Made by a program: the position numbers and the translations under genes | Notes under the pieces: model-generated | Told to the model about the DNA's origin: nothing | The model's database searches: none | What the model saw: only the letters and a program-made list of their open reading frames with translations | Shown here: positions 1,140 to 50,092 of the stretch, piece by piece | Position numbering within the stretch: the stretch's first letter is position 1 | How the letters are laid out: the number at the start of each line of letters is the position of its first letter | Assembly: GCA_030692045.1 (NCBI GenBank) | Contig: JAUYCX010000049.1 | Span: 106,643 to 170,642 of the forward strand | DNA length: 64,000 nt | Source: Candidatus Omnitrophota bacterium | GTDB lineage: Bacteria; Omnitrophota; Gorgyraeia; JAUYCX01 | Direction of reading: 5' to 3'

Positions 1140-2678
1140 TTGAAAGTAGTTCTTATAAGCACAGATGAAAGTCCGGTAGCCATGGGTGTTAAGGCCCTGT
1201 CGTCAAACTTGATTAAGCATGGCTTTAAGACTGCAATAGTGATTATGTCCAGTTGGAGAAAGGACTTTGGAAATTTTTGTTGGGAAAACTTGGAGGAAGT
1301 CTGTAAAGATGTTAAATTAATAGGAATTTCTTGCATGACCCACGGAGTCTTAAAAGCCATTGAGGTAAAAAATAGGCTTCAAAGAAAAACAAAAGCCCAT
1401 TTTATAATCGGAGGGATTCACGCCACCTTGTCTGCGGAGAGCCTTTTGGATAATTTTGAATTAATTTGTTTAGGGGAGGGCGAAGACGTAGTGGTTGAAT
1501 TAGCCAAGCGCCTTAGCAGCAACGAACCTTTTTATGATATTCCCGGGTTGTGGGCGAAATTTGATGGGAAAATCTTTAAAAATCAATGCCAGCCATTAAG
1601 TAAAGATTTAAACGATTATCCTTTTCCTGACTATGATTTAAGCCATCAATTTATTTTGGAATCAGATAGGCTTGTGCCGATGGAGGGCTCGCATATTATT
1701 TGTGATTATTTTGAAGTTATGGGTGCTCGAGGGTGCCCCCATAACTGTGCATTTTGCTCAAACTATAAGATTAAACAGGATTTTCCGTGGAGAAAGATTG
1801 TAAGGCAATATTCCATTGATTATTTTATCAACCATTTAAAAGAAATTTGCAGGGTTTATCCGCAGGTGAGGAGTTTTTGGCTGGAAGACGATACTTTTTT
1901 TGCCAAGGAATATAATCATATTCAAGAATTTGCTCAGAGATATAAGAAAGAAATTAATAAACCTTTCTGTATTCTTATTTCTCCCTGGACGTATGATGAA
2001 GAAAAGGTAAAGCTTCTCATTGAAGCAGGCATGGATAGGATAATTTTTGGCATACAAAGCGGTAGTGAAAATACAAATTACAATATTTATAGTCGAAGAA
2101 TATCCAATAAAAAGATTTTAGAAATAACCCATTCACTTAATAAATTTAAAGGCATGCTGCCTTATTATGATTTTATCGGAATGAATCCTTTTGAAACAAG
2201 AGATGATTTAATAAGCACTATCCAGCTTGTCAAGAAGTTTCCCGCGCCGTTTTTCATATTCAGTAATAATTTAGCTTTTTATCCCGGCACTAAAATTCGC
2301 GAACTCGCTGTGAAAGCGGATTTAGATATGAGTAGGAGAGATAGGCATACAGACGCAAAACACGGTTATTCAATCTTAAAAAATGAAAAAATTGAGCATA
2401 AACTTTTCCATCTTTTATTTTTAATGATGGGAGGTAAGGCCAATAACTTTAAAATTGGGCTTATACCCAGATTTCTTATTTCTGACTATGCAATTAAATT
2501 TTATTGCTTTCTTGATGAAAAGTTAAGTTGTTTAGTGAATAAAATTATTTCATTATTTAGTACAGCTTTAATGTATACTGATTGGAAAGCGTTTTTAAGA
2601 AAACATCTTAGACGTAAGCAGATCGCTATGCTTAAGTCAATTTATTATAAAGTTTTTTTGGAAAGGGTTGATAAATGA
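1140..2678 (+). CDS. B12-binding-domain radical SAM protein (paralogue 1)
   Basis: 512-aa ORF with a TTG start. N-terminal cobalamin-binding-type Rossmann region (IIGGIHATL, CLGEGEDVVVEL), LNDYPFPDYDL linker, and 4Fe-4S motif GARGCPHNCAFCSN (CxxxCxxC). Confidence 0.85.
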   Translation: MKVVLISTDESPVAMGVKALSSNLIKHGFKTAIVIMSSWRKDFGNFCWENLEEVCKDVKLIGISCMTHGVLKAIEVKNRLQRKTKAHFIIGGIHATLSAESLLDNFELICLGEGEDVVVELAKRLSSNEPFYDIPGLWAKFDGKIFKNQCQPLSKDLNDYPFPDYDLSHQFILESDRLVPMEGSHIICDYFEVMGARGCPHNCAFCSNYKIKQDFPWRKIVRQYSIDYFINHLKEICRVYPQVRSFWLEDDTFFAKEYNHIQEFAQRYKKEINKPFCILISPWTYDEEKVKLLIEAGMDRIIFGIQSGSENTNYNIYSRRISNKKILEITHSLNKFKGMLPYYDFIGMNPFETRDDLISTIQLVKKFPAPFFIFSNNLAFYPGTKIRELAVKADLDMSRRDRHTDAKHGYSILKNEKIEHKLFHLLFLMMGGKANNFKIGLIPRFLISDYAIKFYCFLDEKLSCLVNKIISLFSTALMYTDWKAFLRKHLRRKQIAMLKSIYYKVFLERVDK

Positions 2679-4189
2679 AAGTTTTATTTTTCCACAGAAA
2701 TGCTGAATGGATCGGGATAGAATATCTTTCCAGCATTCTAAAGAAAGCTGGCCATGAAACTGAATTAATATTTGATCCCGGCGCCGGAGATGTGGAGTAT
2801 AAATTCAGATTTATTGAGAAAATTTTTGACGTCACAGAAAAGATGATTAAAATGGCCAAGGCATACAAGCCGGACCTGATTGCCTTTTCATGTTTAACTA
2901 ATTTATATCCATGGGTAAATAAAATGTCCCGCTTGATAAAAGAGGTTATGGATGTGCCTATTATCGTAGGGGGGCTTCATCCCACGCTCCTTCCCGAATA
3001 CGTGATAAAAAACCCTTACATTGATATGATATGCATTGGCGAAGGAGAAGAGGCGCTTTTGGAATTGGTGGAAAGCATGCAGAGCGGTTGTATAAATTAT
3101 TCCACAAAAAATATCTGGTTCAAAAGGAATGGAGAGGTTATAAGAAATCCCGTAAGGCCGCTTATCCAAAATTTAGATTCTTTGCCTTTCCCGGATAAAT
3201 CTCTTTTCAGGAAATACGGTTGTTTTTCTGAAAGGATTTATGTTATGACTACACGGGGTTGCCCCTATCAATGCTCATATTGTTACAATTCTTATTACAA
3301 AAAATTATTAAATTTCCCCGGTTTTTCGTATTTGCGACGTCGCAGCGTTAGAAATGTTATAGATGAACTCAAATTTTTTAAATCTCAATATCCTATTAGG
3401 GAAGTATTTTTTTGCGATGATATATTTACCATAGACGATAAGTGGATTAAAAATTTTTGTATTATTTATAAAAAAGAAATAAATCTACCTTTTAAAGCCT
3501 TTGTTCATCCAAAAACCGTTAAAAGAGAGATTATGAAACTTTTAAAAGATGCAGGGTGTATTTATGTAGATATCGGCATAGAATCCGGCAGCGAGGAAGT
3601 AAGAAGAAAGATATTAAAAAGGCATATGAGCAATCAGGATATTATCAATGCCGCCAAAATATTAAAAGAAGTTGGGATTAAATTTTGCACTCTAAACATG
3701 GTAGGGCTTCCTACCGAGACAGCACAACAGATGCGAGAGACTTATGAGTTGAATAAGATTATAAAACCAGACGGTGCCATTGTTTCAATTTTTTATCCGT
3801 ATCCCAAGACAGAACTTGCGGATTTTTGTTTAGAAAACAAACTAATTGCCCCAGAAGAATATGAAAAAATTTGCAATGGAGAAGGCGGCGGGTATAAGGA
3901 CAGTTGCATTATTATCAAAAATACAGATTTAAAAGAAGCTAAAAGACAGCTAATTTTAATTCCTTTTTTGACCAGAACACCTGCTTTTCTTCATCCCATA
4001 ATTAAAGCTTTGCCAATTAATAATTTTACGAGAATTCTTTCAATACCTTTTCTTTCTATACCGAGAAATAATTATATCCGCACAAAAGAATCTTTGACTA
4101 TGTTTATGAAATCCAATTTTTTGTATTTTTTTAGCAAAAAATTTCCTTTTAACATTTCTGATAAGGAACAATCTTGCGCCACAAAATAA
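2675..4189 (+). CDS. B12-binding-domain radical SAM protein (paralogue 2)
   Basis: 504 aa; the ATG overlaps the upstream stop (ATGA). Blocks IVGGLHPTL and CIGEGEEALLEL, linker LDSLPFPDKSLF, cluster motif TTRGCPYQCSYCYN. Confidence 0.88.
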   Translation: MKVLFFHRNAEWIGIEYLSSILKKAGHETELIFDPGAGDVEYKFRFIEKIFDVTEKMIKMAKAYKPDLIAFSCLTNLYPWVNKMSRLIKEVMDVPIIVGGLHPTLLPEYVIKNPYIDMICIGEGEEALLELVESMQSGCINYSTKNIWFKRNGEVIRNPVRPLIQNLDSLPFPDKSLFRKYGCFSERIYVMTTRGCPYQCSYCYNSYYKKLLNFPGFSYLRRRSVRNVIDELKFFKSQYPIREVFFCDDIFTIDDKWIKNFCIIYKKEINLPFKAFVHPKTVKREIMKLLKDAGCIYVDIGIESGSEEVRRKILKRHMSNQDIINAAKILKEVGIKFCTLNMVGLPTETAQQMRETYELNKIIKPDGAIVSIFYPYPKTELADFCLENKLIAPEEYEKICNGEGGGYKDSCIIIKNTDLKEAKRQLILIPFLTRTPAFLHPIIKALPINNFTRILSIPFLSIPRNNYIRTKESLTMFMKSNFLYFFSKKFPFNISDKEQSCATK

Positions 4190-4207
4190 AGAGGAAGAAG
4201 TATACCT

Positions 4208-4969
4208 ATGAAATTATCTATTATTATGCCGGTTTATAATGAGATTGAAAGTATCGAGCATATACTAAGAAGAGTTTCGGAAGTAAAGTATGACAAGGAA
4301 ATTATAATAGTTGATGATGGCTCTAAGGATGGAACGCGCGAGTTCTTAAAAAATAACAAAGCTGATTTTGATGGCGTAAAGGTTTTCTACCACGATGTAA
4401 ATTCAGGCAAGACTGCGGCTATCCGCACAGCGCTTAAGTATATTACAGGCGATATTGTTATTATCCAAGACGCAGATTTAGAATATAATCCAACTGACTA
4501 TAAGCAATTAATTGAACCCATAATTTCTGGTGAATTTGAGGTTGTTTACGGCTCAAGATTTTTAAATTTAGATAAACGTTTTGTTATTTGGCATTGGTTC
4601 CTTAATAAATTTTTAGGCAGGCATTATGAAGTTATTTATTTATCGCATTTCTTTGGGATACTGTTTTTAAATCTGTTAGCGTTTTTGCTTTATGGCGTGA
4701 AGATAACAGACATTGCCACCGGCTACAAGGTGTTTAAATCCGAGATAATAAAGGAAATATGGCTTGATACTAACCGTTTTGAATTTTGTTATGAAATAAC
4801 CGCAAAAATAGCCAAAAGAAATATTAGGATAAAAGAGGTGCCCATAAAATACCATCCCCGTTCAATTCTTAAGGGAAAGAAGATTACATGGAAAGATGGT
4901 ATCAGGGCTGCGCTGACACTTATAAAATATAAATTTAAAAACATTAAAAATGAAAGCCATACTTATTAA
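4208..4969 (+). CDS. GT2 glycosyltransferase, DPM1/GtrB/ArnC-like (probable polyprenyl-phosphate sugar synthase)
   Basis: 253 aa. The series LSIIMPVYNE .. IIIVDDGSKDGT .. IIQDADLEYNP .. YGSRF is the GT-A fold series typical of the DPM1-like clade. A hydrophobic stretch sits mid-protein and an SD-like GAGGAAG lies upstream. Confidence 0.75.
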   Translation: MKLSIIMPVYNEIESIEHILRRVSEVKYDKEIIIVDDGSKDGTREFLKNNKADFDGVKVFYHDVNSGKTAAIRTALKYITGDIVIIQDADLEYNPTDYKQLIEPIISGEFEVVYGSRFLNLDKRFVIWHWFLNKFLGRHYEVIYLSHFFGILFLNLLAFLLYGVKITDIATGYKVFKSEIIKEIWLDTNRFEFCYEITAKIAKRNIRIKEVPIKYHPRSILKGKKITWKDGIRAALTLIKYKFKNIKNESHTY

Positions 4970-6377
4970 TCCGTATCCCTATTATGCAAGAGGAGTGGAG
5001 GGGATTGTTTATCCTCCCTTAGGGCTTATCTATTTAGCTTCAGTTGCTAAGAATCGTAATTTAGGCGATATGAGAGTATTAGATGCCAATATTATGAAAT
5101 TGGAGAATAAAGGAGTGATTGCCCAGATATTGGATTACAACCCAGATATAATCGGTATTTCCAGTAATATCGTAACACACAGATCTGCATTAGAATTGGC
5201 AAAATTAATAAGGCTAAATGGAATGAAACAACTTTTATTAGTAGGCGGTCCGTACCCAGTTTTATTTCCAGACAAGTATTTAGAATATTGCGATATCATA
5301 GTAAACGGAGAAGGCGAAGAAACCTTTTGCGATATCCTCGAAGCGTGCAGATATAAAAAGGAGATTTTTTCGCTCAAGGGTATATTATATAAGAAGGACA
5401 ATTCTATTTTCCACAATAAAAATAGAGAATTCATGGATAATCTCGACGATATTCCGTTTCCAGACTACACATTACTTAAGCCCTCAATTGACTATTACAG
5501 CAAACGCGCAAGGATTATTAAGAATATAATGGCGCCGGTAATGACTTCAAGAGGCTGCCCTTACCAGTGCACCTACTGTAATAAAAGCGTATTTGGCTCG
5601 ACATTTAGATGCCGCACTCCAGAAAACATTTTAATGGAGATAGAATGGTTGCATAAAAATTTTAAGGTTGATCAGATTGATATATTAGACGATAATTTTA
5701 ATCTTATTCCAGAAAGAGCAGAAAAGCTTTTGGATAAGATAATCGATACGGATTTAAATATAGCCATAAGCTGCCATAATGGATTGCGCGCTGATAAAAT
5801 TTCAGATAGCTTTGCAGAAAAACTCAAGAAAAGCGGTGTATTCAAAGTAGGCTTAGGTATAGAAACTGCGGATTTTAAATTGATGCAGACCATAAAGAAA
5901 AATTTAGATTTGAATAAAGTTAAAGATGCGATAACCGCATTGCGAAAACAACGGATTACCGTACACGGGTATTTTATTTTTGGCTTGCCAGGTGATACAC
6001 CTTCCAGTATGAAGCGTACTATAGAATTTGCCAAAGATGTTAATCCTCATTTCTGTAACTTTGCTACTTGTATTCCGTTTCCAGGGACAGAGGTGTACAA
6101 TATCGTAAGAAAAGAAGGGACTTTCTTGGAAGATGTGGATAATGGCGTTTCTTCAGGATTCTTCGATGGGAAGGTTTTTTTTGAGATAAATGGGACAAAA
6201 GCTAAAGATGTATCTTACTATTGCAAAAAGGCTTATAAGGATTTTTATTTTAATGCCGAGAAAATCTTAGATATTGCTTTTACAATTAAGAATTTTAGAG
6301 AACTAAAATGGGTGCTTTCAACATCTTTGTCACTGGTAAAAAATATGCTGTTTAGCTTAGGCAAAAAGCAGTCATGA
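4950..6377 (+). CDS. B12-binding-domain radical SAM protein (paralogue 3)
   Basis: 475 aa with an MKAILINPYP start. Blocks LVGGPYPVL and VNGEGEETFCDI, linker LDDIPFPDYTLL, cluster motif TSRGCPYQCTYCNK. Overlaps the upstream GT2 by 20 nt. Confidence 0.88.
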   Translation: MKAILINPYPYYARGVEGIVYPPLGLIYLASVAKNRNLGDMRVLDANIMKLENKGVIAQILDYNPDIIGISSNIVTHRSALELAKLIRLNGMKQLLLVGGPYPVLFPDKYLEYCDIIVNGEGEETFCDILEACRYKKEIFSLKGILYKKDNSIFHNKNREFMDNLDDIPFPDYTLLKPSIDYYSKRARIIKNIMAPVMTSRGCPYQCTYCNKSVFGSTFRCRTPENILMEIEWLHKNFKVDQIDILDDNFNLIPERAEKLLDKIIDTDLNIAISCHNGLRADKISDSFAEKLKKSGVFKVGLGIETADFKLMQTIKKNLDLNKVKDAITALRKQRITVHGYFIFGLPGDTPSSMKRTIEFAKDVNPHFCNFATCIPFPGTEVYNIVRKEGTFLEDVDNGVSSGFFDGKVFFEINGTKAKDVSYYCKKAYKDFYFNAEKILDIAFTIKNFRELKWVLSTSLSLVKNMLFSLGKKQS

Positions 6378-7825
6378 AGATTAAAAAAGCTTTTCTAATT
6401 TATCCTCCTACAGGTCTATATATGAGAGATGATAGGTGCCAGGCGCCTGTAAAAGGGATGGCAGCTCAACCCATTCGCACTCCCTTAGATTTGGCATATA
6501 TCGCATCTACTTTGGAGAATGTTGGTGTAGAGTGTAAAATAAAAGACTATCCATCTGAGAAGCAAGGTTGGCCAAACTTCGAAGAAGATTTAAAAAAGTT
6601 TAAACCAGATGTCCTTGTAATAAGCGTAACTACTCCAACTCTTGTCGCTGATTTAACTGCTGCTAGCTTAGCTAAAAGATTTAAAAATGATATCCTGGTT
6701 ATATCTAAAGGTGCGCATTATCTCGTAGAGGATGAAGAGGTGCTTAAAAAGTTTCAGGATTTGGATATCATAATTAGAGGAGAATCTGAATTTACTGTTG
6801 CCGAAATCGTCTCCTCAGACAATCTTGAGAATGTTCTAGGAATTACTTTTAGAAAAAATGGGCTTATTAAAAGAACCCCTAATAGGCCTTTGCTGGAGAA
6901 TTTGGACAGTTTACCTTTTCCTGCCCGGCACCTTTTGAATAATGAATTATACTTAACTCCCGATACAAAAGAGCCGATAACTCTCATTTATACCGGACGG
7001 GGATGTTTTCACCAGTGTGTTTTTTGCGCAGTTCCTTTTGTAGCGGGTCACAAAGTAAAACTTCGCTCACCCCAGATTATAGTTTCAGAGATTGAAGAAT
7101 GTATCAAGAAGTATAATATTAGAAACTTTTTCTTCAGAGCAGATACATTTACTTGGGATGAAAAGTGGGTTATTGAGATATGTAAGCTAATTATTGATAA
7201 GGATATACAGATACGTTGGGGAACTAACAGCAGGGTTGATACTATAAATGAGAACAGACTGCATTGGATGAAAAAGGCAGGATGTTGGGTTATCGGATTT
7301 GGGGTTGAAAGCGGTAATCAGGAATCTTTAGACCTGATGAAAAAGAAAACCAAGGTTAAAGATGCTTTCAGGGCAATATCGCTTTGCAAGAGATATGGAA
7401 TAAAAACATACGCTTTATTTGTTATAGGATTTCCTTGGGAGAAACGCTCAGATATAAAAGATACAATTAGGTTGACTAAAGCATTAAATCCCTCTTTTAT
7501 TGATATAAATATTGCCTATCCTTTACCCGGTACAGAATTATTCAGATTAGCAAAAAAAGAGAATCTCTTTAACGAGAAAGATCTCCATGGCTATGATTAC
7601 GCCAAGCCGCTTATAAGAACCAAATATTTAACTACAAAGGAACTGATAAATCTGAGACGCTGGGCATTATTAAGTTTTTATTTAAGGCCAAGCTATATCG
7701 CAAGGACACTTTTATCTATAAGGTCGCCTAAAATTTTGTTTAGTTATATAACATCAGGTATACAGCTTATTTACAAAACTTTCAGCAGCGAATTACACGT
7801 TGAGGAATTCAGAGAGGAGATGTGA
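6374..7825 (+). CDS. B12-binding-domain radical SAM protein (paralogue 4)
   Basis: 483 aa with an ATGA overlap. Blocks ISKGAHYLV and IRGESEFTVAEI, linker LDSLPFPARHLL, cluster motif TGRGCFHQCVFCAV. Confidence 0.85.
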   Translation: MKIKKAFLIYPPTGLYMRDDRCQAPVKGMAAQPIRTPLDLAYIASTLENVGVECKIKDYPSEKQGWPNFEEDLKKFKPDVLVISVTTPTLVADLTAASLAKRFKNDILVISKGAHYLVEDEEVLKKFQDLDIIIRGESEFTVAEIVSSDNLENVLGITFRKNGLIKRTPNRPLLENLDSLPFPARHLLNNELYLTPDTKEPITLIYTGRGCFHQCVFCAVPFVAGHKVKLRSPQIIVSEIEECIKKYNIRNFFFRADTFTWDEKWVIEICKLIIDKDIQIRWGTNSRVDTINENRLHWMKKAGCWVIGFGVESGNQESLDLMKKKTKVKDAFRAISLCKRYGIKTYALFVIGFPWEKRSDIKDTIRLTKALNPSFIDINIAYPLPGTELFRLAKKENLFNEKDLHGYDYAKPLIRTKYLTTKELINLRRWALLSFYLRPSYIARTLLSIRSPKILFSYITSGIQLIYKTFSSELHVEEFREEM

Positions 7826-7835
7826 GCCGCTAAAT

Positions 7836-8891
7836 ATGGAAAAAGATAAAAACAGAGCATTATTAAAAAATTCTAACAAAAAGAGAAATATAGTCGAAGC
7901 ATTAGTTATTTTCTTTTTATTTTTAAGCGCGGCTTTTTCAATTTCCTATTGGGCAATTGCTAAATACGATGTTTATAGTGACTATACTGCTTGCGGTGAT
8001 GCCCAACAATACATAAAAATGAGTAGGCATGATTATTCTAACGTACAGCAAAGATACAGAAATAGGCCATTAATGCCATTTATAGTTTCTTTGCTTAATG
8101 ACCATTTGAAAATTGATAACTTTTTAAATAAATATTATGAAAATGTAGAAAATAAGATTATCCAGTTAAATTTTGGTATTGTGAATATATTAGCCATTGC
8201 ACTAACGGCATTGTTGTTTTTTTATTACTGCATTTATTTAAATTTCTCTAAATGGGAAAGTTTAGTTGGTTCATTTCTCTTTTTAACTTCTTTTTTTGTG
8301 GTGACATATTTTACAATTCCTATGGTTGACTCCTTATCTGCATTTTTCATAATGGCTGGATTTTATGCGGTTTTGCGTAGTTCATTATTAGGTTTATCCT
8401 TATCATTTTTATTGGGCGTGTTTACGAAAGAGACAACCTTTGTTATTTTGCCTTTGATATTATTAGAGGAAAGAAGATTGTTTACAAAAAAACTTTTAGT
8501 CTGCTTACCGGGCATTATTTCTTATATTATTTTTGTTATCTTCTTTCAGGACAAAGCCGATGCTACTTTTTATATCTTCAAAGATGTTGTTAAAATATTA
8601 AAAGGGAATTTTATTCAAGTAAGTATGCGTGAATTTAGTTTCTACACCCTAATAGAAAATATACAGATATTTATGTTTCTTTGGATTTTATTTATATATG
8701 CGCTATTTAAGTGTAAGAAACCGGTTTTCTTAAAACGGGTAGTTTGGTTGCTTATTATTCCTGTTTTCACACCATTACTGCCAGGTGCAGTAGTGGGTAG
8801 AGCGGTTTTTTACCTTTTTCCGATTGTTATCCCATTTGCCTTATTGGCACTTAGAGATATTTTAGTCTCAAAAGTAAAAGAAAATTATTAA
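7836..8891 (+). CDS. Polytopic integral membrane protein (possible GT-C-type transferase or polymerase)
   Basis: About 350 aa with roughly 9-10 hydrophobic helices by eye. An acidic GDAQQY segment follows the first helix. I prefer the ATG at 7836 to the TTG at 7800, which overlaps the upstream gene. No soluble catalytic motif was recognised. Confidence 0.4.
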   Translation: MEKDKNRALLKNSNKKRNIVEALVIFFLFLSAAFSISYWAIAKYDVYSDYTACGDAQQYIKMSRHDYSNVQQRYRNRPLMPFIVSLLNDHLKIDNFLNKYYENVENKIIQLNFGIVNILAIALTALLFFYYCIYLNFSKWESLVGSFLFLTSFFVVTYFTIPMVDSLSAFFIMAGFYAVLRSSLLGLSLSFLLGVFTKETTFVILPLILLEERRLFTKKLLVCLPGIISYIIFVIFFQDKADATFYIFKDVVKILKGNFIQVSMREFSFYTLIENIQIFMFLWILFIYALFKCKKPVFLKRVVWLLIIPVFTPLLPGAVVGRAVFYLFPIVIPFALLALRDILVSKVKENY

Positions 8892-8905
8892 TTTCGCCTT
8901 CAAAA

Positions 8906-10390: not shown

Positions 10391-10434
10391 GAAGCTATCT
10401 TTGGCGTAGACTACCAATAGGACATAGTACTATT

Positions 10435-11766: not shown

Positions 11767-11786
11767 CATGTGCGCATAGTTTATTT

Positions 11787-12974: not shown

Positions 12975-12980
12975 AGAATT

Positions 12981-14876: not shown

Positions 14877-14914
14877 AAGATATTGGTTGTAACTTGGCAA
14901 GTATTGGATCTAAT

Positions 14915-16075: not shown

Positions 16076-16102
16076 TTTGGACATGAGTGAGTAGCAGTAT
16101 AA

Positions 16103-17065: not shown

Positions 17066-17090
17066 TAATTTAGAAGTATTAGAAAAGGTT

Positions 17091-17166: not shown

Positions 17167-17208
17167 AAAAAATAAGAAGTAAAATAACAATGTGGATAGT
17201 TGAATATT

Positions 17209-18615: not shown

Positions 18616-18625
18616 GCGACGTTAT

Positions 18626-29962: not shown

Positions 29963-29966
29963 AGTT

Positions 29967-30191
29967 ATGTATGTACTTGGAATTAACTGCGGCCGTCATT
30001 CAACTGCCGCTTTGCTTAAAGATGGAAAGATTATCGGATGTGTAAGTGAAGAGAGATTTAAGAGGATTAAGAATTATTCTGGGTATCCAGATAAAAGTAT
30101 TAAGTATTTATTAGAATATGCAGGTATTAAGCCTTGGCAGTTAGATCTTGCGGCATTAGGCAATTTTCTTATTTCCAAAGAGAGGAGTTAA
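29967..30191 (+). pseudogene. N-terminal remnant of a NodU/CmcH-family carbamoyltransferase
   Basis: This 74-aa ORF begins MYVLGINCGRHSTAALLKDGKIIGCVSEERFKRIKNYSGYP. That is collinear with the first ~65 aa of the full-length carbamoyltransferase at 51912 (MNILGISCFYHDSAACLVRDGEIMGAVQEERFTRKKHDFNFP), after which it terminates. Full-length family members are about 600 aa. Confidence 0.7.
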
Positions 30192-30194
30192 AAA

Positions 30195-31532: not shown

Positions 31533-31566
31533 ATTGCCAGCACCCTAATTACAGAAAGGGGAATTT

Positions 31567-32592: not shown

Positions 32593-32612
32593 TATAGAGG
32601 CGGATTTAATTT

Positions 32613-33506: not shown

Positions 33507-33519
33507 AGGAGAATGAAAA

Positions 33520-34536: not shown

Positions 34537-34539
34537 GTA

Positions 34540-35937: not shown

Positions 35938-35942
35938 GAAAA

Positions 35943-37811
35943 TTGAGAAAATTAATGGAAATCAAGAATAAAATTACTCTTGTCTTGGTTTTTATCTTAT
36001 TTTTTGGTTTTCTGCTACGTTTATGGGGTATAGGATTTGGTCTTCCTTATCTATCACATCCTGACGAAACAAGGGTTATTTTAGATACGCTTTCAATGGG
36101 CCATAGATTTAGTTTAATACCCCAGCGTCCGGATTATTCACTGCTTTATAGATATTTGCTTTTAGGATTATATGGTTGTTATTTTGTCGTGGGAAAATTG
36201 CTTGGCATATTTAGAGATTTGAATGATTTTGCATTTAAATTTATGGTTAATCCCACAGCCATCTATATTATTTCACGAATGGTTAGTGTAATCTTCGGAA
36301 CTCTAACTGGACTATTTTCTTATTTATTAGCAAAAAGGTTCTTTGATAAAACAACCGCTTTTGTAACAATGTTATTTGTTCTTTTTGAATTTCAGCTGCT
36401 TCAACATTCACAATGGGCAATATATCCAGCCGTATTTAGCTTTACTACATTGTTAGCTATTTATTCTATGTTTAGAGTTATTAAAGAACCTTCTTTAAAA
36501 AATTTTATTTTGATGGGAGTTTTTAATGGTATTTCGATTTCAACTCAGAATCATGGAATATTTTTACTGCCACCCCTAGCGATAACAGTTTTATTTCATT
36601 TTTTTGATAACAAAAATATTTTAGACAGAAAAGTTTTCTTTAAGAATTATTCTGCTTTAATTTTGAGTTTGGTAATTTTTAGTCTTTTAGGAAATTTTTA
36701 TTGGTTTTTTATCTTTAAAAAAACTTTTCTTAAATACTCTGAACTTATAGGAGTAACTAAGGTTGGCTTTGCCTCGAAGCCGCCTTATGCTAATAATATT
36801 TTCAGTTTGGTTTTTTGGTTTGTTAGTGAGCTTATAAGACAAGATGGGATCTTGGGAATTTTTTTAGTATTAGGTTTAATCTATTCAATAATTAAGCATA
36901 CTAAATTCGATATTGTTTTTTTAGCTTATGTAGTTACCAATTTATTTATATTCTCGGGTTGGGGTTTTAGGTTGCTACATGATATGTTAGGGGTAATGCC
37001 TATAATTTGTGTTTTTGGGGCTCGAGCGCTGGTTGACTTATTAAAAAAAATAAGATTTAAGGAGGCTTCGATAGGCATGGTCGCTTGTTTAATTTCCCTT
37101 CCATTGATATGCGATTCAGTTATTGTTGACATAAAAAAGAACAATCTTGATACAAGGCAACTAACAAAAGATTGGATTGAGCAAAATATTCCCAGTACCC
37201 AAAAGATAGCTATTGATTGGTACGTCTTTAGCGTAGCGTTAAATAGCGACATTCCATTGTATTTTAGAAATCCTGTTGCAAGAAAATATTATGAAGAGAA
37301 TATTCCTGATAAGATAAAAGAGTTATATGTTGATTATCTGAAAAATAAACCTGTTTATGACATAATCGAGATTATGGAATCAAGTGATAAGCCACACTGG
37401 CCTTCTGATATGCCACTTGAAGCCGTGAAAGAAGCTAATAGGCATGCCTTCTATAGAGACATATACAGCAAATTTAATTTTAGGTCTTTAGAATATCTCA
37501 AGAAAGAAAACGTTAAATATATCATTATTTCAAGTTACCTTTATGGCTTCTTTTTGTTAGATTCAGACTATAATAAAAGAGACCTCTTCAATCCCTTTAT
37601 AAAAGATAGGCCTTGGATAAATTTCAGTCAGTCAAACTATTATATAGATGATAAGAGATATGGATTATTATATTTTATAAGTCGAGATGCAAGAAATTTT
37701 TATCTTCCTCTTTTAAAAAATGAGCTTAAAGGCGTAGTCTTGATAAAAGAATTTAAACCGGATAACTGGCATTTAGGACCGATAATTAAAATTTATAAAG
37801 TAACACGATGA
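35943..37811 (+). CDS. GT-C glycosyltransferase, ArnT/PMT-like (GT39/GT83-type)
   Basis: 622 aa. GLPYLSHPDETRVILDTLSM follows the first helix and matches the PDETRY-type acidic loop motif of ArnT-like enzymes. There are about 11-13 TM helices and then a ~220-aa soluble C-terminal domain. TTG start at 35943 or ATG at 35955. Confidence 0.7.
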   Translation: MRKLMEIKNKITLVLVFILFFGFLLRLWGIGFGLPYLSHPDETRVILDTLSMGHRFSLIPQRPDYSLLYRYLLLGLYGCYFVVGKLLGIFRDLNDFAFKFMVNPTAIYIISRMVSVIFGTLTGLFSYLLAKRFFDKTTAFVTMLFVLFEFQLLQHSQWAIYPAVFSFTTLLAIYSMFRVIKEPSLKNFILMGVFNGISISTQNHGIFLLPPLAITVLFHFFDNKNILDRKVFFKNYSALILSLVIFSLLGNFYWFFIFKKTFLKYSELIGVTKVGFASKPPYANNIFSLVFWFVSELIRQDGILGIFLVLGLIYSIIKHTKFDIVFLAYVVTNLFIFSGWGFRLLHDMLGVMPIICVFGARALVDLLKKIRFKEASIGMVACLISLPLICDSVIVDIKKNNLDTRQLTKDWIEQNIPSTQKIAIDWYVFSVALNSDIPLYFRNPVARKYYEENIPDKIKELYVDYLKNKPVYDIIEIMESSDKPHWPSDMPLEAVKEANRHAFYRDIYSKFNFRSLEYLKKENVKYIIISSYLYGFFLLDSDYNKRDLFNPFIKDRPWINFSQSNYYIDDKRYGLLYFISRDARNFYLPLLKNELKGVVLIKEFKPDNWHLGPIIKIYKVTR

Positions 37812-40019: not shown

Positions 40020-40028
40020 GAATATTTT

Positions 40029-40730
40029 ATGAGAGATAAAGGATTGATGTTTGATATTAATGTATCTGCCTTACAAGAGTTTATTACTGAACCTTGGAAG
40101 CACGGTCCCCATTTTAAGGCTTTAAAATATATTCTATCTGATTCCAAAGTCTTAGATGTTGGTTGCTCGAAGGGTTATATAGCAGATTTGCTTAAGTTTA
40201 AGAAATGTTATGTAGTGGGAATAGAAAAAGATAAACCTACATCTAATATAGCGAGAAAATATTGTAATGAAGTAATCACAACCGATATTGAAAATTTTGC
40301 TGAATTGCCCTATCCTGATGGTTTTTTTGATTTTATTTTATGTTTAGATGTGTTGGAACATATCGCAAGGCCGGATATTATTTTAGATAAATTGAGAAAC
40401 TATTTATCAAATAATGGTAGTATTATAGTTTCATTACCCAATATAGCCCGTTTTGAAAATCGTCTAAAATTACTTTTTGGAAAGTTTGATTATAACGAAA
40501 AAGCAAGCGCCTTTAATAAGGGTCATCTTAGATTCTTCACTTTAAAGACCGCAAAAGACTTAGTCCAATCTGCTGGTTTTAGAATTATAAAGATTGAGTA
40601 TACAGGCTTATGTTCGATTGTAAAGGTTTTTCCCGCGTTAACTGCTTTTCAATTTTTATTAGTAGCAAAGAAAAATATTTTATTTGAGTGTACTAAGAAA
40701 GACAAGAAGGAGATATCGTGGACGAGATAA
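40029..40730 (+). CDS. Class I SAM-dependent methyltransferase
   Basis: Motif I is KVLDVGCSKGYIADLL. The post-I and motif II regions are VVGIEKD and FDFILCLDVLEHIARPD. 233 aa. Confidence 0.8.
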   Translation: MRDKGLMFDINVSALQEFITEPWKHGPHFKALKYILSDSKVLDVGCSKGYIADLLKFKKCYVVGIEKDKPTSNIARKYCNEVITTDIENFAELPYPDGFFDFILCLDVLEHIARPDIILDKLRNYLSNNGSIIVSLPNIARFENRLKLLFGKFDYNEKASAFNKGHLRFFTLKTAKDLVQSAGFRIIKIEYTGLCSIVKVFPALTAFQFLLVAKKNILFECTKKDKKEISWTR

Positions 40731-45438: not shown

Positions 45439-46136
45439 ATATTCTTGTTTCGATATTTAGATTAAGTGCATATCTTCATTCATCATTTTTTTATAAACGA
45501 AAGGTCGCTTCTATTTTAGGACATAGTCTTAAAGAAATAAATTTAATTTATAAAGAGGTTAGCAGTTCGCAGTGGTTCAAGGAAATTGCCCAAAAAAAGA
45601 ATATTAAGCAAGGGCTTTTTGATTTCAGTATGTTATCTCCCTTGAGGGCACAAACATTATATGTTCTTTGTAGGATAGCGAAGCCAGAAATAGTGGTTGA
45701 GACAGGCGTTTCTGAAGGTTTTTCTTCAACTTTTATTCTGCAGGCGTTAGAGAAAAATAATAAAGGTCATCTTTATTCCATAGATTTGCCTAATCAGCCA
45801 GGACAAAAGTTGCCAGAGAATAAGACAACCGGTTGGCTTATTCCCGAAGACCTTAAGAAAAGATGGATGCTTATCTTAGGTTCATCACGAGAGAAACTGT
45901 CTGCGCTTTTAAATGATTTAAAAAATATCGATATTTTCTTTCATGATAGCGACCACAGTTATGAAAATATGATGTTTGAATTTGAATCAGCTAAATCATA
46001 TCTTAAAAGTGGAGGGTTTTTACTTTCTGATGATATCACTGACAATAATTCCTTCAGGGATTTTTGTAACTTTAACAAATGCAATTATGTAAGATTATTT
46101 AAGTTGGGTATAATAAAAAAGATTAGCATTTTATGA
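45426..46136 (+). CDS. Class I SAM-dependent methyltransferase (Methyltransf_24/CmcI-like, tentative)
   Basis: IVVETGVSEGFSSTFILQAL .. LYSIDL .. IFFHDSDHSYENM resembles the CmcI/O-methyltransferase-type fold. 236 aa. Confidence 0.6.
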   Translation: MQKMNILVSIFRLSAYLHSSFFYKRKVASILGHSLKEINLIYKEVSSSQWFKEIAQKKNIKQGLFDFSMLSPLRAQTLYVLCRIAKPEIVVETGVSEGFSSTFILQALEKNNKGHLYSIDLPNQPGQKLPENKTTGWLIPEDLKKRWMLILGSSREKLSALLNDLKNIDIFFHDSDHSYENMMFEFESAKSYLKSGGFLLSDDITDNNSFRDFCNFNKCNYVRLFKLGIIKKISIL

Positions 46137-47611
46137 ATAAGAAAGTTGATGTAGTTTTATTCGGTTCAATTTTACCACCAGCTGATTTTAGAATTACCCC
46201 AGGTAGTTTCCCTTTAGGGTTATTGGCCCTGGCTCCAATTTTAAAACAGAAAGGATTATCTGTTGAGGTCATTAGTGGTGCTTTTAGGGATGCCCATCAG
46301 AGGTTAGAAGATACCATTAAACGTTGCAGATATTTCGGCGTTTCTTCTATGACTGGGCCATATTTAAAGATGGCAATTGATGTTTCAAAAGCAGTAAAAA
46401 GAAAATATCCTCATATTCCTATTATTTGGGGAGGAGTGCACGCTACATTATTATACGAAGAGACGATTAAAGAAGATTATGTTGATGTGATAGTAAGAGG
46501 CATGGGGGAAGATACGCTTTGGAGCTTAATAGAAGCATTGGAGAAAGGGCTGCCATTGAGTAATATTAAAGGAATTACATATAAAATTAACGGAAGAATA
46601 ATCTCTAATTCCGATATAGATATACCCGATATAAATAAATTTCCCAGTTTTGATTACAGTGACTTTTTGTCATATCGAGATGATATAAGTGAACTTCCTT
46701 ATATTTCAAGCAGAGGCTGTCCCTATGGCTGCACTTTTTGTGTGGCAAGCAAACTATATAATCGCAAATATTATTTTTATTCTGCAGAGAGAATGTTTGA
46801 GGATATAAGTGGACTTGTTGATGCATTTGGCTGCAATAGATTTACTTTTTGGGATGATAATCTTTTTGTTATAAAAGATAGATTAAAAAATTTCTGCCGG
46901 TTGCTGGTAGACAACGATATTAAGATTAAATGGTCGGCTTTTTGTCATTGTGATTTATTTCTAAAATATGATGATGAAATGGTAAGGCTAATGAAAGAAG
47001 CGGGCTTGGAGAATATTAGTTTTGGAGCCGAATCGGGTTCTCTCAAAATCCTAAATTTGATTAAGAAAAAGATAACACCTGAACAGATAGTCTCTTGTGT
47101 TTTAAGGACAAAGGAATTTAATATAGATGCTGATTTTACATTTATGACTGGTTTTCCGCAGGAAACAATGGATGATTTTAAACAAACGCTCTCACTTTTT
47201 AAAGAAATGCTAAAGATAAATCCTGATATTAGTATTAGGCTGTTTGCTTTTACTCCCTATCCTAAAATTCCAATTTTGGAGCAGGAACCGAGTCTTGCGC
47301 AATACTTTCCAAATACTATAGACAGCTGGGCTATTTTAACCTATCAAAATTATATTCCACAATGGTTAGATAAGGGTCGCCAAAAATTAATCGATAATAT
47401 CGTTTGGATGGTAAATTTTCTTTCCCGCAAGCAAAGACCAAAGACCCAGAACATTTTTTTTAATCTTTTACTTTACCTATATCATCTTAGCGCTTTATTC
47501 AGGCTAAAAATTAATTTCTTATCCTATGCTTTTGAATGGAAATTATTTAAATTCGCTTATAAAATTAACGCAAGGCTTATAGTGCAAAAAACTACAGAAT
47601 GGAAACTGTAA
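46133..47611 (+). CDS. B12-binding-domain radical SAM protein (paralogue 7)
   Basis: 492 aa with an ATGA overlap. Blocks IWGGVHATL and VRGMGEDTLWSL, linker INKFPSFDYSDF, cluster motif SSRGCPYGCTFCVA. Confidence 0.85.
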   Translation: MNKKVDVVLFGSILPPADFRITPGSFPLGLLALAPILKQKGLSVEVISGAFRDAHQRLEDTIKRCRYFGVSSMTGPYLKMAIDVSKAVKRKYPHIPIIWGGVHATLLYEETIKEDYVDVIVRGMGEDTLWSLIEALEKGLPLSNIKGITYKINGRIISNSDIDIPDINKFPSFDYSDFLSYRDDISELPYISSRGCPYGCTFCVASKLYNRKYYFYSAERMFEDISGLVDAFGCNRFTFWDDNLFVIKDRLKNFCRLLVDNDIKIKWSAFCHCDLFLKYDDEMVRLMKEAGLENISFGAESGSLKILNLIKKKITPEQIVSCVLRTKEFNIDADFTFMTGFPQETMDDFKQTLSLFKEMLKINPDISIRLFAFTPYPKIPILEQEPSLAQYFPNTIDSWAILTYQNYIPQWLDKGRQKLIDNIVWMVNFLSRKQRPKTQNIFFNLLLYLYHLSALFRLKINFLSYAFEWKLFKFAYKINARLIVQKTTEWKL

Positions 47612-49059
47612 AATCGGAGAGAAAAGATATCCATAAGATTATTCTTTTTAATGTAAACGATGCTTTTCCTGCAGGAGAAATATTTCAGGAACCTGCTCTG
47701 GGTTTGGGTTATATAAAGTCATATTTTGATATGTACTCTCATTTAAAAGACAAAATCAATATAACAATTTTAAAAAAAGATATTTGGCAGACGCTTGTAA
47801 TAGAGAAACCCGATGTCATTGGCATATCTTCTGTTACTCAAGATTATACCAACGCCATAAAATATGCCAAGAAAATTAAGCAGGCTGGTTCCAAGGCCTT
47901 AATAATAATTGGCGGAATACATATAAGTAATCTACCTGAATCATTCAATGATGTTTTTGATATTGGAGTAACAGATGAGGGAGAACAAACCTTTAAAGAA
48001 TTAATTGAATCAATCTATGAATTTGGTTTTGACAAAGAAAGATTAAGAACGATAAAAGGCCTGCTTTATAAAGAAGGAGAGGAGCTGGTAATGACAGGCA
48101 GAAGGGCCTTGATTGATGATTTAGATTCCATTCCGCCGCCATATAGAAAGTATCTAAAATTTAATACCCTTTTACACATCCTTACTGCAAGGGGCTGTCC
48201 TTACAAATGTGCTTATTGCTCATCGAGTGCTTTTTGGGGATATAAAGTAAGATTTCATTCGCCCAAAAGAATAATAGATGAGATGATAGAGTTAATTAAA
48301 GAATACCACCTTATGCACATTTCTATTTGGGATGATTTATTTGCCATTAACAAAAAGAGACTAAGAGAAATTGTTAATTTAATTAAAGATAATAGAGCAG
48401 TTTTTAAAGATATTACCTTCGGCGTTACAGCTAGGCCAAATGTTGTGGATGAGGAATTATGCGAATTATTAAGAGAGATGAATGTAACCCGTGTTTCTTT
48501 AGGCATCGAATCTGGGTCCGATAAAATGCTTAAAGTTTTGAATCGCAATATTACTGTTGAACAAAACCACAAGGCAGTCAAGGTACTTAAAAAATATAAG
48601 TTTACAGTTAACGGGGGAGTTATTGTCGGTTCACCTCAAGAGTCATTGGATGATTTAGAGAAGACCTATGACTTTGTATTAAGTTCTGAATTGGATGGAG
48701 GAGGAATTGGACTGGCGCTTCCCTATCCAAATACAGAATTCTGGAATTTCGCTAAGAAAAGAAATTTAGTGAGTGCCGATATGGACTTTTCAAAATTGGT
48801 TTTAATTCAGGATCCCACCAAATTAAAGGCAGAAGATGATTTTATATTTTTAAATGATACATTAAGCCGAAAGGATTTTCTTGAAATAGCCATAAAAATT
48901 CATAAATTATTTGTTAAAAAGAATGCTCTATCTTTTTTTAACCGCAAGAATTTTAATTTAAGAAATGTCAGAATGTCACTAAGTAATCCAAAATTATTTT
49001 TTCCATTCATAATGTATAATTTTAAAAAATTAATTAGGAGCTTATGTTTTCATGGCTAA
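47599..49059 (+). CDS. B12-binding-domain radical SAM protein (paralogue 8)
   Basis: 486 aa. Blocks IIGGIHISN and VTDEGEQTFKEL, linker LDSIPPPYRKYL, cluster motif TARGCPYKCAYCSS. Confidence 0.85.
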   Translation: METVKSERKDIHKIILFNVNDAFPAGEIFQEPALGLGYIKSYFDMYSHLKDKINITILKKDIWQTLVIEKPDVIGISSVTQDYTNAIKYAKKIKQAGSKALIIIGGIHISNLPESFNDVFDIGVTDEGEQTFKELIESIYEFGFDKERLRTIKGLLYKEGEELVMTGRRALIDDLDSIPPPYRKYLKFNTLLHILTARGCPYKCAYCSSSAFWGYKVRFHSPKRIIDEMIELIKEYHLMHISIWDDLFAINKKRLREIVNLIKDNRAVFKDITFGVTARPNVVDEELCELLREMNVTRVSLGIESGSDKMLKVLNRNITVEQNHKAVKVLKKYKFTVNGGVIVGSPQESLDDLEKTYDFVLSSELDGGGIGLALPYPNTEFWNFAKKRNLVSADMDFSKLVLIQDPTKLKAEDDFIFLNDTLSRKDFLEIAIKIHKLFVKKNALSFFNRKNFNLRNVRMSLSNPKLFFPFIMYNFKKLIRSLCFHG

Positions 49060-50092
49060 TTTTATTACTAGGTTCAGAAATTTAATAGTTGATTCATACC
49101 GAGGCAAGAAGATTATGCATTATTTATTAAAATCATTTATTTTTACTAAGAATCCAGTGTATAGATATTTGTGCCTTAAAGATATCCGTAATAAAATACC
49201 TTCTTTGGAAAAATTACCTGTTTTTGTCACAATCGAAAATACAAATTTGTGTAATCTTTCTTGCATTTTTTGCGCTAATGAGCAGATGGCAAGAAAAAGA
49301 GGTTTTATGGATGATAATTTATTCAAATCAATAATTGACCAATGCGTTTATCACGGAATTCCTAATGTATTAGTTCAAGGTTTTGGAGAACCGCTATTAG
49401 ATAAAGATTATGTTTCTAAAATAAGGCTTGCAAAGGAAAAGGGAATAAAATTTGTGCATTGTGTAACGAATGGAGTTTTGCTAAACAAGGCTCTTTCAGA
49501 AGAACTAATCAATGCAGGATTAGATTATATTTATATAAGCATTGATGCGGCAACCCCTGAAGTTTATAGCCAGGTACATCATTTACCTTCCAAGCAAATA
49601 CCCAGCGACGATTTTTTCACCATTGTTGAAAATATAGAACAGCTCATTAATATTAAGAAAAAAAATAGAACAAAAAAGCCTTTTATTGAAGTTCGGTTTA
49701 AAGATTTCGAACTAAATAAAAAAGACCTAATTTGTTTTATGGATAAGTATCGTGGAAGAGTAGATAAAGTAAACATTTACATGAATATTACTAATTGGCC
49801 CGGAAGCACTATCAGAAATAATTTACCCAGAGTAAGAATGCTGAAATTTCCCTGCTTTAATCTTTGGTCAACTTTATATGTTAGTTATGAAGGAAAGGTT
49901 TCACTTTGTTGTCAGGATTATGAATGTAAAGTTGTGATAGGGGATGTAAAAAAAGAGTCTCTTATAGAAATATGGAATGGGCATAAATTAAAAAATTTTC
50001 GCACTTTGCATTTAGAAAATAAGTTTGATGAAATTTCGATTTGTGGAGATTGTGTGGTAAATACTCATCTAGTTACTCCTTGGTGGCAATAG
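49052..50092 (+). CDS. Radical SAM protein with SPASM/twitch-type C-terminal auxiliary-cluster domain
   Basis: 346 aa. The N-terminal cluster motif is NTNLCNLSCIFCAN. The C-terminal region CFNLWSTLYVSYEGKVSLCC fits C-x13-G-x4-C, and ICGDC follows. Confidence 0.8.
   Translation: MANFITRFRNLIVDSYRGKKIMHYLLKSFIFTKNPVYRYLCLKDIRNKIPSLEKLPVFVTIENTNLCNLSCIFCANEQMARKRGFMDDNLFKSIIDQCVYHGIPNVLVQGFGEPLLDKDYVSKIRLAKEKGIKFVHCVTNGVLLNKALSEELINAGLDYIYISIDAATPEVYSQVHHLPSKQIPSDDFFTIVENIEQLINIKKKNRTKKPFIEVRFKDFELNKKDLICFMDKYRGRVDKVNIYMNITNWPGSTIRNNLPRVRMLKFPCFNLWSTLYVSYEGKVSLCCQDYECKVVIGDVKKESLIEIWNGHKLKNFRTLHLENKFDEISICGDCVVNTHLVTPWWQ

Follow-up and report, generated by a model that had tools for sequence, protein, structure and literature searches.

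Several three-component bacterial glycosylation systems that use polyprenyl-phosphate sugars follow a common plan. In ArnC/ArnD/ArnT, GtrB/GtrA/Gtr-GT-C, PgfS/PgfM, and CsbB/YfhO, a GT2 synthase with C-terminal transmembrane (TM) helices is combined with a GT-C transferase, and in the Arn system, the lipid-linked sugar also undergoes a tailoring step. Here, a stretch of 64,000 nucleotides from a Candidatus Omnitrophota bacterium (GenBank assembly GCA_030692045.1, contig JAUYCX010000049.1, positions 106,643 to 170,642 of the forward strand; hereafter the window) is analyzed. It encodes eight class B radical S-adenosylmethionine (rSAM) proteins, named R1–R8, and a ninth rSAM protein of the SPASM/twitch type, named S9. 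We consider it reasonably probable that these nine proteins are accessory sugar-tailoring enzymes of the cytoplasm that act on activated, probably lipid-linked, sugars of a glycan of the lipopolysaccharide (LPS) type.

The class B rSAMs form a very large family. Its ~84,000 sequences fall into over 100 groups, of which the largest are unexplored. C-methylation is their default chemistry. GenK and GenD1, two class B enzymes of gentamicin biosynthesis, methylate unactivated sp3 carbons of sugars. HpnJ is proposed to turn lipid-anchored bacteriohopanetetrol (BHT)-glucosamine into a cyclitol ether, and the archaeal radical SAM calditol synthase Cds remodels a lipid-linked hexose. AprD4 is described in a review as a radical SAM diol dehydratase with the NADPH reductase AprD3 as its partner. 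According to a 2026 review, AprD4 and ArsL do not bind cobalamin despite their Rossmann-like domains, and no structural feature tells methylases from other class B enzymes. Polysaccharide, LPS, glycan, and polyprenyl substrates are unmentioned in two 2026 reviews, one of B12-dependent and one of lipid-modifying rSAMs, and targeted full-text searches returned no paper that describes rSAMs as working components of pathways for O-antigen or capsule. An earlier reading of this DNA from the sequence alone (the sequence-only reading) had named no characterized LPS or capsule precedent, and these sources bear it out.

Nine divergent radical SAM proteins in an LPS-type locus

The nine proteins are encoded as follows (positions are those of the window):

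R1, 1140..2678, + strand: class B rSAM, the most divergent paralogue (Radical_SAM 65.9 bits, B12-binding 37.9 bits; cluster motif CPHNCAFC)
R2, 2675..4189, + strand: class B rSAM (Radical_SAM 99 bits, B12-binding 72.6 bits)
R3, 4950..6377, + strand: class B rSAM, HpnJ/BchE-like (Pfam Radical_SAM and B12-binding)
R4, 6374..7825, + strand: class B rSAM, HpnJ-like, with a single-Gly variant of the GG block (Pfam Radical_SAM and B12-binding)
R5, 17200..18615, + strand: class B rSAM, HpnJ-like, single-Gly variant (Pfam; first ATG at 17209)
R6, 34540..35937, + strand: class B rSAM, between a short-chain dehydrogenase/reductase (SDR) and a GT-C protein (Pfam Radical_SAM and B12-binding)
R7, 46133..47611, + strand: class B rSAM without a close family (Pfam Radical_SAM and B12-binding)
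R8, 47599..49059, + strand: class B rSAM, BchE-like below cut-off (Pfam Radical_SAM and B12-binding)
S9, 49052..50092, + strand: rSAM with a SPASM/twitch auxiliary-cluster domain, BtrN-like (Radical_SAM 70.9 bits; SPASM 59.4 bits, cut-off 21.5)

All eight class B proteins match Radical_SAM (PF04055; E 6e-18 to 2e-28, 66–100 bits) and B12-binding (PF02310; E 2e-9 to 3e-20, 37.9–72.6 bits against a gathering score of 32.1) above the Pfam gathering scores, with R1, R4, and R5 lying nearest to the B12-binding threshold. The class B architecture that the sequence-only reading had assigned to eight open reading frames (ORFs), including a cobalamin-binding domain detectable by hidden Markov models, was thus recovered in each of them. 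The start at 17209 given by that reading for one of them is the first ATG of the R5 ORF. DUF4070, which it had listed among the models to check, has no match in R1–R8 in Pfam. No window ORF beyond the nine matched Radical_SAM in the Pfam scan.

Each of the nine proteins carries one CxxxCxxC motif, which takes the form RGC(P/F)(Y/H)xCx(F/Y)C in R1–R8 and CNLSCIFC in S9. The GGxHxT-like, GEGE-like, and LD(S/D)(L/I)PFP-like blocks described earlier are also real and can be followed through the alignment of R1–R8, but R3 (GGPYPV), R4 (SKGAH), and R5 (-GTY) have a degenerate GG block. The single-Gly variant is kept across orthologue families, as (A/S)KG(A/G)H in R4-like and (M/I)GTHAT in R5-like proteins. 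R5-like proteins are also without the Ser after strand 3. The C-terminal tails of R1, R7, and R8 are hydrophobic and basic.

S9 has 346 amino acids, with extra cysteines and an N-terminal extension. Its tail has the pattern C-x13-G-x4-C ... CxxC, and all four cysteine positions of the BtrN twitch domain are occupied by cysteines in S9. BtrN is its best match in the PDB (E 2e-12, in two separate stretches), and no NCBIfam cut-off is attained. The earlier reading of the ninth protein as a BtrN-like SPASM/twitch enzyme is supported. Weak matches were also obtained to the tetraether/macrocyclic archaeol synthase 7tol (E 1.7e-7) and to Tes.

The eight class B paralogues share only 23–35% pairwise identity, so they are not recent copies of one another. 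R3, R4, R5, and R6 each have outside orthologues with 52–61% identity, against at most 35% among the paralogues of the window. Recent amplification is ruled out by these two observations, and the view that the proteins are old and distinct holds. The nearest non-self relative of R7 among 1.84 billion cluster representatives is only 40% identical. Class B modules of this kind also occur in fused form. Giant proteins of 1,497–2,331 amino acids (P0265, P0268, P0271, P0293, and P0366) contain three to five separate class B rSAM-like stretches each and are fused arrays of the module that the window holds as separate paralogues. A preprint on Omnitrophota reports giant proteins whose sugar-metabolism modules include radical SAM domains, and loci of the present kind are not analyzed there.

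Comparison with named families placed the eight proteins near several of them and in none. HpnJ (TIGR03471, cut-off 577.6 bits) gives 238 bits with R4, 206 with R5, 170 with R3, and 74 with R1, for which it is the best NCBIfam match. BchE (TIGR02026, cut-off 481 bits) reaches its maximum of 180 bits with R4; R6 and R8, at 156–176 bits, have it as their best family. AprD4 (NF033070, cut-off 500 bits) is highest for R4, R5, and R6 at 97–109 bits, with the maximum in R4. R2 is nearest to a ladderane-type B12 rSAM of lipid biosynthesis (134 bits) and also to HpnJ, both below cut-off. ApyD is the best match of R7 (148 bits) and is strong for R4 and R6, again below cut-off. Membership in HpnJ, BchE, AprD4, ApyD, the ladderane rSAM, or another NCBIfam equivalog was therefore rejected, as the scores are far below the cut-offs. 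When a profile of R1–R8 was compared with the PDB, AprD4 was found at the top (E 7e-43) and MgmA (9ccb) second, together with OxsB, CysS, TokK, and TsrM. The alignment with AprD4 is limited to the rSAM core (profile positions 159–387), and those with OxsB, CysS, and TokK also span the N-terminal domain. Judged by these profile scores, R1–R8 are rSAMs of class B architecture that belong to no characterized subfamily.

The window has a GC content of about 33%, is 99% coding, and forms one long array of overlapping genes on the + strand. Its largest intergenic gap lies at 29963–30194, and the window has no tRNAs and no match to any Rfam family. Core and O-antigen machinery is present above Pfam thresholds (two GT9, two Wzy_C, Polysacc_synt (Wzx), Bac_transf, and WecG), so that the window is a surface-glycan locus of the LPS type, as had been proposed. 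Two of these genes lie toward its ends:

GT9, 19..1104, + strand: heptosyltransferase-family protein, left edge of the locus (Pfam Glyco_transf_9, E 1.6e-32)
second GT9, 58390..59550, + strand: heptosyltransferase-family protein of the conserved backbone (Pfam; orthologue with 44% identity in the same order in comparison locus L084)

Many GT2 and GT4 genes are found as well, with several nucleotidyltransferases, SDR dehydratases/epimerases, UGDH, ManC, and a DegT aminotransferase for nucleotide sugars, two AsnB-type amidotransferases, four class I methyltransferases, and one carbamoyltransferase.

Nine of about 55 genes in the window encode rSAMs. In two comparison sets of loci from other genomes (designated by L numbers), a single class B rSAM is present in 68/79 and 58/80 loci, and the maximum is six in 18 kb. 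Because of these counts, the window is the extreme of the sample, yet it is not the sole multi-rSAM glycan locus. The earlier impression of an unusual density is correct to this extent, but other such loci exist. One of them, L027 from a Planctomycetota groundwater metagenome-assembled genome (MAG), has six class B rSAM-like ORFs, some of them fragments, together with GT9 and UbiA in about 18 kb. It is an independent multi-rSAM locus of glycan type in another phylum.

Gene order, exchangeable slots, and conserved pairs

The rSAM genes are interspersed with candidate sugar-phosphate synthases, a redox partner, and membrane transferases:

GT2_253, 4208..4969, + strand: AglJ/PpgS-like GT2, candidate polyprenyl-phosphate hexose synthase (Pfam GT2; NCBIfam AglJ 119 bits, PpgS 63 bits, below cut-off)
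unk363, 7800..8891, + strand: polytopic membrane protein, possibly GT-C-like (about 9–11 predicted TM segments)
GT2_320, 16103..17065, + strand: PgfS/ArnC-like candidate polyprenyl-phosphate sugar synthase with C-terminal TM helices (full-length matches to PgfS, 256 bits, and ArnC, 162 bits, below cut-offs)
GFO, 18626..19657, + strand: GFO/IDH/MocA NAD(P) oxidoreductase, conserved partner of R5 (Pfam)
unk430, 19730..21001, + strand: rare membrane protein, probable GT-C-fold transferase (21 homologues; AlphaFold2 (AF2) pLDDT 87.3)
UbiA, 32613..33506, + strand: UbiA-family polyprenyl-phosphate phosphoribosyltransferase, DPPR-synthase-like (NCBIfam NF008977, 267 bits against a cut-off of 234)
SDR, 33520..34536, + strand: extended SDR adjoining UbiA (Pfam 3Beta_HSD/Epimerase; orthologue with 75% identity in L083)
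PMT2_622, 35943..37811, + strand: PMT_2-family GT-C glycosyltransferase (Pfam PMT_2 44.7 bits, PMT 37.1 bits)
MT233, 40029..40730, + strand: class I methyltransferase that co-occurs with R6 and S9 (Pfam; orthologue with 50% identity in L086, absent from L083)
unk624, 50098..51915, + strand: DUF6311/YfhO-like glycosyltransferase with a predicted GT-C fold (AF2 pLDDT 87.8, pTM 0.89; Foldseek)

A repeated order of synthase, rSAM, and GT-C protein had been noticed in the sequence-only reading. It is real in two places, namely GT2_320, R5, GFO, and unk430, and then UbiA, SDR, R6, and PMT2_622. A plausible further place, the fourth, is R1, R2, GT2_253, R3, R4, and unk363. The third cassette, which consists of methyltransferases, R7, R8, S9, and unk624, directly precedes a GT-C gene but is without an adjoining synthase.

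The assignment of the membrane transferases depends partly on predicted structures. Sequence comparison of unk624 alone yielded no PDB or Pfam match, and its fold was assigned only via structure prediction. The top 22 PDB matches of the model in Foldseek are all GT-C proteins with probability 1.0 (among them STT3, DPY19, AglB, AftD, PglB, ALG9, ArnT, and Pmt4), and the modeled unk624 is thus assigned the GT-C fold. The protein has 488 homologues from uncultured bacteria, among which DUF6311 and YfhO annotations occur; those listed are 52–64% identical, and every named one among them is from Omnitrophota. Unk430 has no Pfam match, and its model matches ALG12 and ArnT in Foldseek (probability 1.0, TM ~0.5), which suggests that it is probably a GT-C-fold transferase. 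An invariant Asp-Glu pair follows the first TM helix in both unk624 and unk430 (D37-E38 in unk430). No relationship among unk624, unk430, unk363, and PMT2_622 was detectable by hhalign. In the C-terminal soluble part of PMT2_622, residues ~503–570 weakly match plant cystatins (4lzi, E 2e-4); this may point to a periplasmic domain resembling cystatins or be due to chance.

The nearest NCBIfam models of the oxidoreductase GFO are UDP-GlcNAc 3-dehydrogenase (172 bits) and inositol 2-dehydrogenase (159 bits). Its mechanical ORF begins at TTG 18452 inside R5, and the likely start is ATG 18626, 11 nt past the R5 stop, which agrees with the Pfam domain starting at residue 65 of the mechanical ORF.

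The comparison loci show that the rSAM genes occupy slots whose content varies. In L083, ten genes of the window are represented in the same order by orthologues of 49–75% identity: SDR338, PMT2_622, GT2_334, GT4_404, MT322, AsnB2, SDR354, MT263, unk624, and the carbamoyltransferase. R6, MT233, MT236, R7, R8, and S9 are missing from it. Conservation of the rSAM genes with the glycan backbone is ruled out by this collinear locus without R6, R7, R8, and S9. What remains of the earlier expectation that the two are conserved together is the preservation of specific pairs; otherwise, the rSAM genes are interchangeable accessory cassettes. The same is seen between GT2_320 and unk430. Orthologues of GT2_320 (64–68%) are always upstream of orthologues of unk430 (50–62%), and the intervening genes vary: L168 has none, L166 a methyltransferase, L170 YdjC together with a formyltransferase and a methyltransferase, and the window R5 with GFO. 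The genes found upstream of unk624 orthologues vary too: where the window has R7-R8-S9, L083 has a methyltransferase, L081 a methyltransferase, an acyltransferase, and a gene without known function, and L084, after a YfhO gene, two other, unrelated class B rSAMs. L084, a contig from a MAG (GCA_041643015.1), encodes one of the unk624 homologues and is collinear with the right-hand 13 kb of the window at 44–86% identity. This collinearity, the named unk624 homologues, and the closest R4 orthologues agree with an Omnitrophota host.

Within this variability, certain neighbors stay together. R5 orthologues, which form a group with 42–52% identity, adjoin GFO orthologues (42–47%) in all three contexts in which they were examined (R5 identity 44–52%), each with a nearby GT2 in a glycan cluster. 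R4-related loci number 79, at 35–61% identity, and the closest orthologues include Omnitrophota MAGs. Homologues of GT2_253 (49–55%) lie directly upstream of the closest R4 orthologues in L003, L004, and L054, and the adjacency of R3 and R4 is kept in L009 (55% and 59%). In 16 loci of Brocadiales, other Planctomycetota, and Bacteroidota, the R4-like gene is directly downstream of a DPPR-synthase-like UbiA (L021, L023, L026–L028, L042, L046, L048, L057, L058, L061, L062, L067, L071, L075, and L076). R4-like genes are paired with UbiA or a DPM-like GT2 in 35/79 loci.

The UbiA–R4-like unit is often accompanied by ManC. In Bacteroidota, the pair sits amid the housekeeping genes UvrC and LigA, and these surroundings suggest a core function for it. 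A different, conserved arrangement is found in Nitrospirota/Thermodesulfovibrionia, where a tetratricopeptide repeat (TPR) protein, a protein of ~666 amino acids without a Pfam match, an R4-like rSAM, and mostly a GT2 of 233 amino acids occur together (L020, L024, L025, L029, L039, L043, L044, L050, L051, L064, L074, and L077).

The nearest R6 orthologue (53%, L086) is beside orthologues of MT233, MT263, and GT4_404; an orthologue of S9 lies about 5 kb upstream. A tie of R6 to UbiA and a GT-C protein, as the window might suggest, is not supported, since this orthologue sits with methyltransferase and GT4 genes. Orthologues of R6, S9, and MT233 are found together in L086 and are jointly missing from L083. 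An ORF of 1,714 amino acids without a homologue in the window (L086, 1283–6427) lies between the S9 orthologue and those of MT233, MT263, and R6. Glycan-type genes are present in 33/42 loci of at least 8 kb that were recovered with R6, several of which have four class B rSAMs. When non-rSAM queries were used, class B rSAMs were found in 3/6 of the loci retrieved.

Other parts of the window add to the picture of its glycan. AsnB-type glutamine amidotransferases are encoded at 12981–14876 and 41687–43600 and a UDP-glucose/GDP-mannose dehydrogenase at 30195–31532; these three genes suggest that the glycan contains amidated uronic acids. Between the initiating phosphoglycosyl transferase and a Wzy_C gene, the window encodes a VanZ-family membrane protein and a protein of the metallo-beta-lactamase fold (26260–27701). 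The carbamoyltransferase is followed by a membrane ORF of 139 amino acids (53726–54145) and an ORF of 54 amino acids (54151–54315), the whole spanning 51912–54315. L083 has a matching trio, in which the small genes are annotated as SxtJ (PF19588) and DUF5989, and L168 has the carbamoyltransferase, an unannotated ORF of 132 amino acids, and DUF5989. The three genes look like a conserved carbamoylation unit.

A proposed editing route and its rivals

The gene order can be read as a route of four steps. A membrane-associated synthase (candidates are GT2_253, GT2_320, and UbiA) would attach a sugar to polyprenyl phosphate on the cytoplasmic side of the membrane. The neighboring rSAM or rSAMs would then use radical chemistry to edit the activated sugar, at times together with a redox partner, of which GFO beside R5 is an example. 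The edited lipid-linked sugar would be flipped across the membrane, and a downstream GT-C-fold enzyme (candidates are PMT2_622, unk624, and probably unk430) would move it to the glycan. The analysis shows the domain architecture, the divergence of the proteins, the gene order, which genes are present or absent in which genomes, and the GT-C fold of the modeled unk624. We infer each of these four steps, as well as the substrate, the chemistry, and the use of cobalamin. C-methylation would be the most likely reaction for most of R1–R8, and it is favored because it is the dominant chemistry of class B enzymes. For R5 and GFO, a two-step radical and redox conversion, e.g., deoxygenation or rearrangement, is more likely, and S9 is a likely radical alcohol dehydrogenase. 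It is a bolder and decidedly improbable idea that R3, R4, and R5 with GFO carry out radical editing of the carbon skeleton of polyprenyl-phosphate-linked hexoses (ring contraction, carbocyclization to a cyclitol-like residue, or deoxygenation). If it were true, the LPS-type glycan would contain carbocyclic or rearranged residues installed by GT-C enzymes, and a new class of lipid-linked sugar editing beyond simple methylation would be at hand.

Several observations weigh against tailoring of lipid-linked sugars by cobalamin-using enzymes. None of the nine rSAMs attains the curated cut-off of any NCBIfam model. The B12-like domain is no proof of cobalamin binding, given AprD4 and ArsL; together with the lack of a structural feature specific to methylases, this precedent makes cobalamin use and chemistry unreadable from sequence, and no sequence rule for cobalamin binding was found in the literature. 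R4 and R5 are without the first Gly of what we take, from the MetH motif, to be the GG element of their B12 domains. A cobalamin riboswitch is absent from the window in the Rfam scan. The gene order itself fits the editing of a nucleotide sugar and of a lipid-linked sugar alike, the nearest R6 orthologue adjoins neither UbiA nor a GT-C gene, and the many distant R4-like genes of Sumerlaeota have no glycan neighbors. The transferase and flippase steps have gaps too. The fold matches of unk430 have weak E-values (0.007–0.07), and unk363 has no GT-C assignment but only a sub-threshold PMT match (E 0.0018). No small flippase gene of the GtrA/ArnEF type turned up in the window, although no dedicated GtrA model search was made; the modules hold no unassigned small membrane ORF in this 99%-coding window.

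Fom3 is an rSAM that acts on a cytidylylated substrate, and it is the precedent for the main rival. In that explanation, which we regard as somewhat unlikely, the rSAMs edit soluble nucleoside diphosphate (NDP)- or cytidine monophosphate (CMP)-sugars in the cytoplasm before lipid transfer, and the adjacency to synthases reflects co-regulation of one pathway. The nucleotidyltransferases, SDRs, UGDH, ManC, and DegT of the locus are makers of nucleotide sugars, R5 orthologues in L171 and L172 adjoin NTP_transferase, SDR, and UGDH genes, and the closest R6 orthologue is amid soluble methyltransferases and GT4. However, the R5–GFO cassette is placed exactly between a synthase and a membrane transferase, a conserved pair that does without it in L168. 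R4-like genes accompany UbiA or DPM-like GT2 in the 35 loci counted above, in Bacteroidota even outside glycan clusters, and lipid-anchored sugars are the proposed substrates of both HpnJ, the nearest named family, and the precedent calditol synthase. A further explanation concerns cobalamin rather than the substrate. R4, R5, and perhaps others may be cobalamin-independent AprD4-like enzymes, with R5 and GFO as a sugar-deoxygenating dehydratase/reductase pair and not a methylase. The top PDB rank of AprD4, the relatively high scores of R4, R5, and R6 on its NCBIfam model, the single-Gly variant kept in R4, R5, and their orthologue families, the constant NAD(P) oxidoreductase beside R5, which parallels AprD4/AprD3, and the B12-like domain of AprD4 itself, which binds no cobalamin, all speak in its favor. 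It is nevertheless unlikely, since the AprD4 match covers only the rSAM core and the cobalamin enzymes OxsB, CysS, and TokK align across the N-terminal domain too, all of R1–R8 pass the B12-binding gathering score, and the AprD4 scores are about one-fifth of the cut-off of 500.

Substrates other than sugars have to be weighed as well. Some or all of the rSAMs could modify a lipid, be it the polyprenyl carrier, an acyl chain of lipid A, or a membrane lipid, by methylation of the HpnP/HpnR type or by C-C coupling, as in ladderane-associated and tetraether-synthase rSAMs. The best NCBIfam match of R2, the weak matches of S9 to 7tol and Tes, and the hydrophobic, basic tails of R1, R7, and R8 are consistent with this. 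We regard it as very unlikely, because the scores are all far below the family cut-offs, genes for fatty acids, isoprenoids, or acyl chains of lipid A are absent from the window, and the slots elsewhere hold sugar-tailoring enzymes (methyltransferases, YdjC deacetylase, formyltransferase, and acyltransferase). It is scarcely credible that the rSAMs modify a peptide or protein, either in the manner of RiPPs (peptides that are made by the ribosome and modified after translation) or by side-chain methylation as in ApyD, PoyC, and MgmA, with the glycan genes as mere neighbors. ApyD is indeed the closest family of R7 and strong for R4 and R6, and MgmA ranks second in the PDB, but these scores too are far below cut-offs, and orthologues recur in glycan contexts across phyla. 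A RiPP cluster was rejected, as no candidate precursor peptide, protease, or exporter gene was seen in the 99%-coding window.

The tailoring of lipid-linked sugars thus remains the favored reading, and the locus suggests an unstudied route of chemically editing surface sugars. The window can be set beside L083 and L168 as a natural comparison with and without cassettes, and R5 and GFO are a conserved two-gene unit suited to reconstitution. If the reading is true, radical chemistry joins the known means by which bacteria diversify their surface glycans, which matters for recognition by phages and predators. Several orphan class B subfamilies would obtain functions, and new C-H-functionalizing enzymes would become available for glycoengineering.

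Relation to described systems

The nearest named family for R4, R5, and R3 is HpnJ, which has the same architecture of B12 domain and rSAM domain. The resemblance is limited by scores of 74–238 bits against a cut-off of 578 and by the anchor, whose place polyprenyl phosphate would take in the window; the annotated ORFs of the window include neither a squalene-hopene cyclase nor hpn genes. Cds resembles the proposed role in that it edits a sugar already on a membrane lipid, a likeness drawn from its description, and it differs in being archaeal and in its tetraether lipid anchor. GenK and GenD1, likened by literature description only, differ from R1–R8 by belonging to secondary metabolism and by their free pseudo-oligosaccharide substrates. 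AprD4/AprD3 resembles R5 and GFO as an rSAM paired with an oxidoreductase, whereas the profile match of R1–R8 with AprD4 is confined to the rSAM core, and AprD4 binds no cobalamin. S9 is likened to BtrN, a 2-deoxy-scyllo-inosamine dehydrogenase, by its best PDB match and the four aligned auxiliary-cluster cysteine positions, but BtrN has only ~250 amino acids against 346, and S9 scores as SPASM in Pfam.

The systems that use polyprenyl-phosphate sugars are close to the window in another respect. GT2_320 is similar over its full length to PgfS and ArnC, which both make undecaprenyl-phosphate sugars, and homologues of unk624 carry the DUF6311/YfhO annotation. The difference is in the tailoring slot, which here holds rSAMs, not described for those systems. 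By analogy, the proposed mechanism would be the logic of ArnC/ArnD/ArnT with a radical enzyme in the tailoring position. Both the enzyme architecture and the glycosylation logic are known, and it is their combination in this locus that has not been described before.

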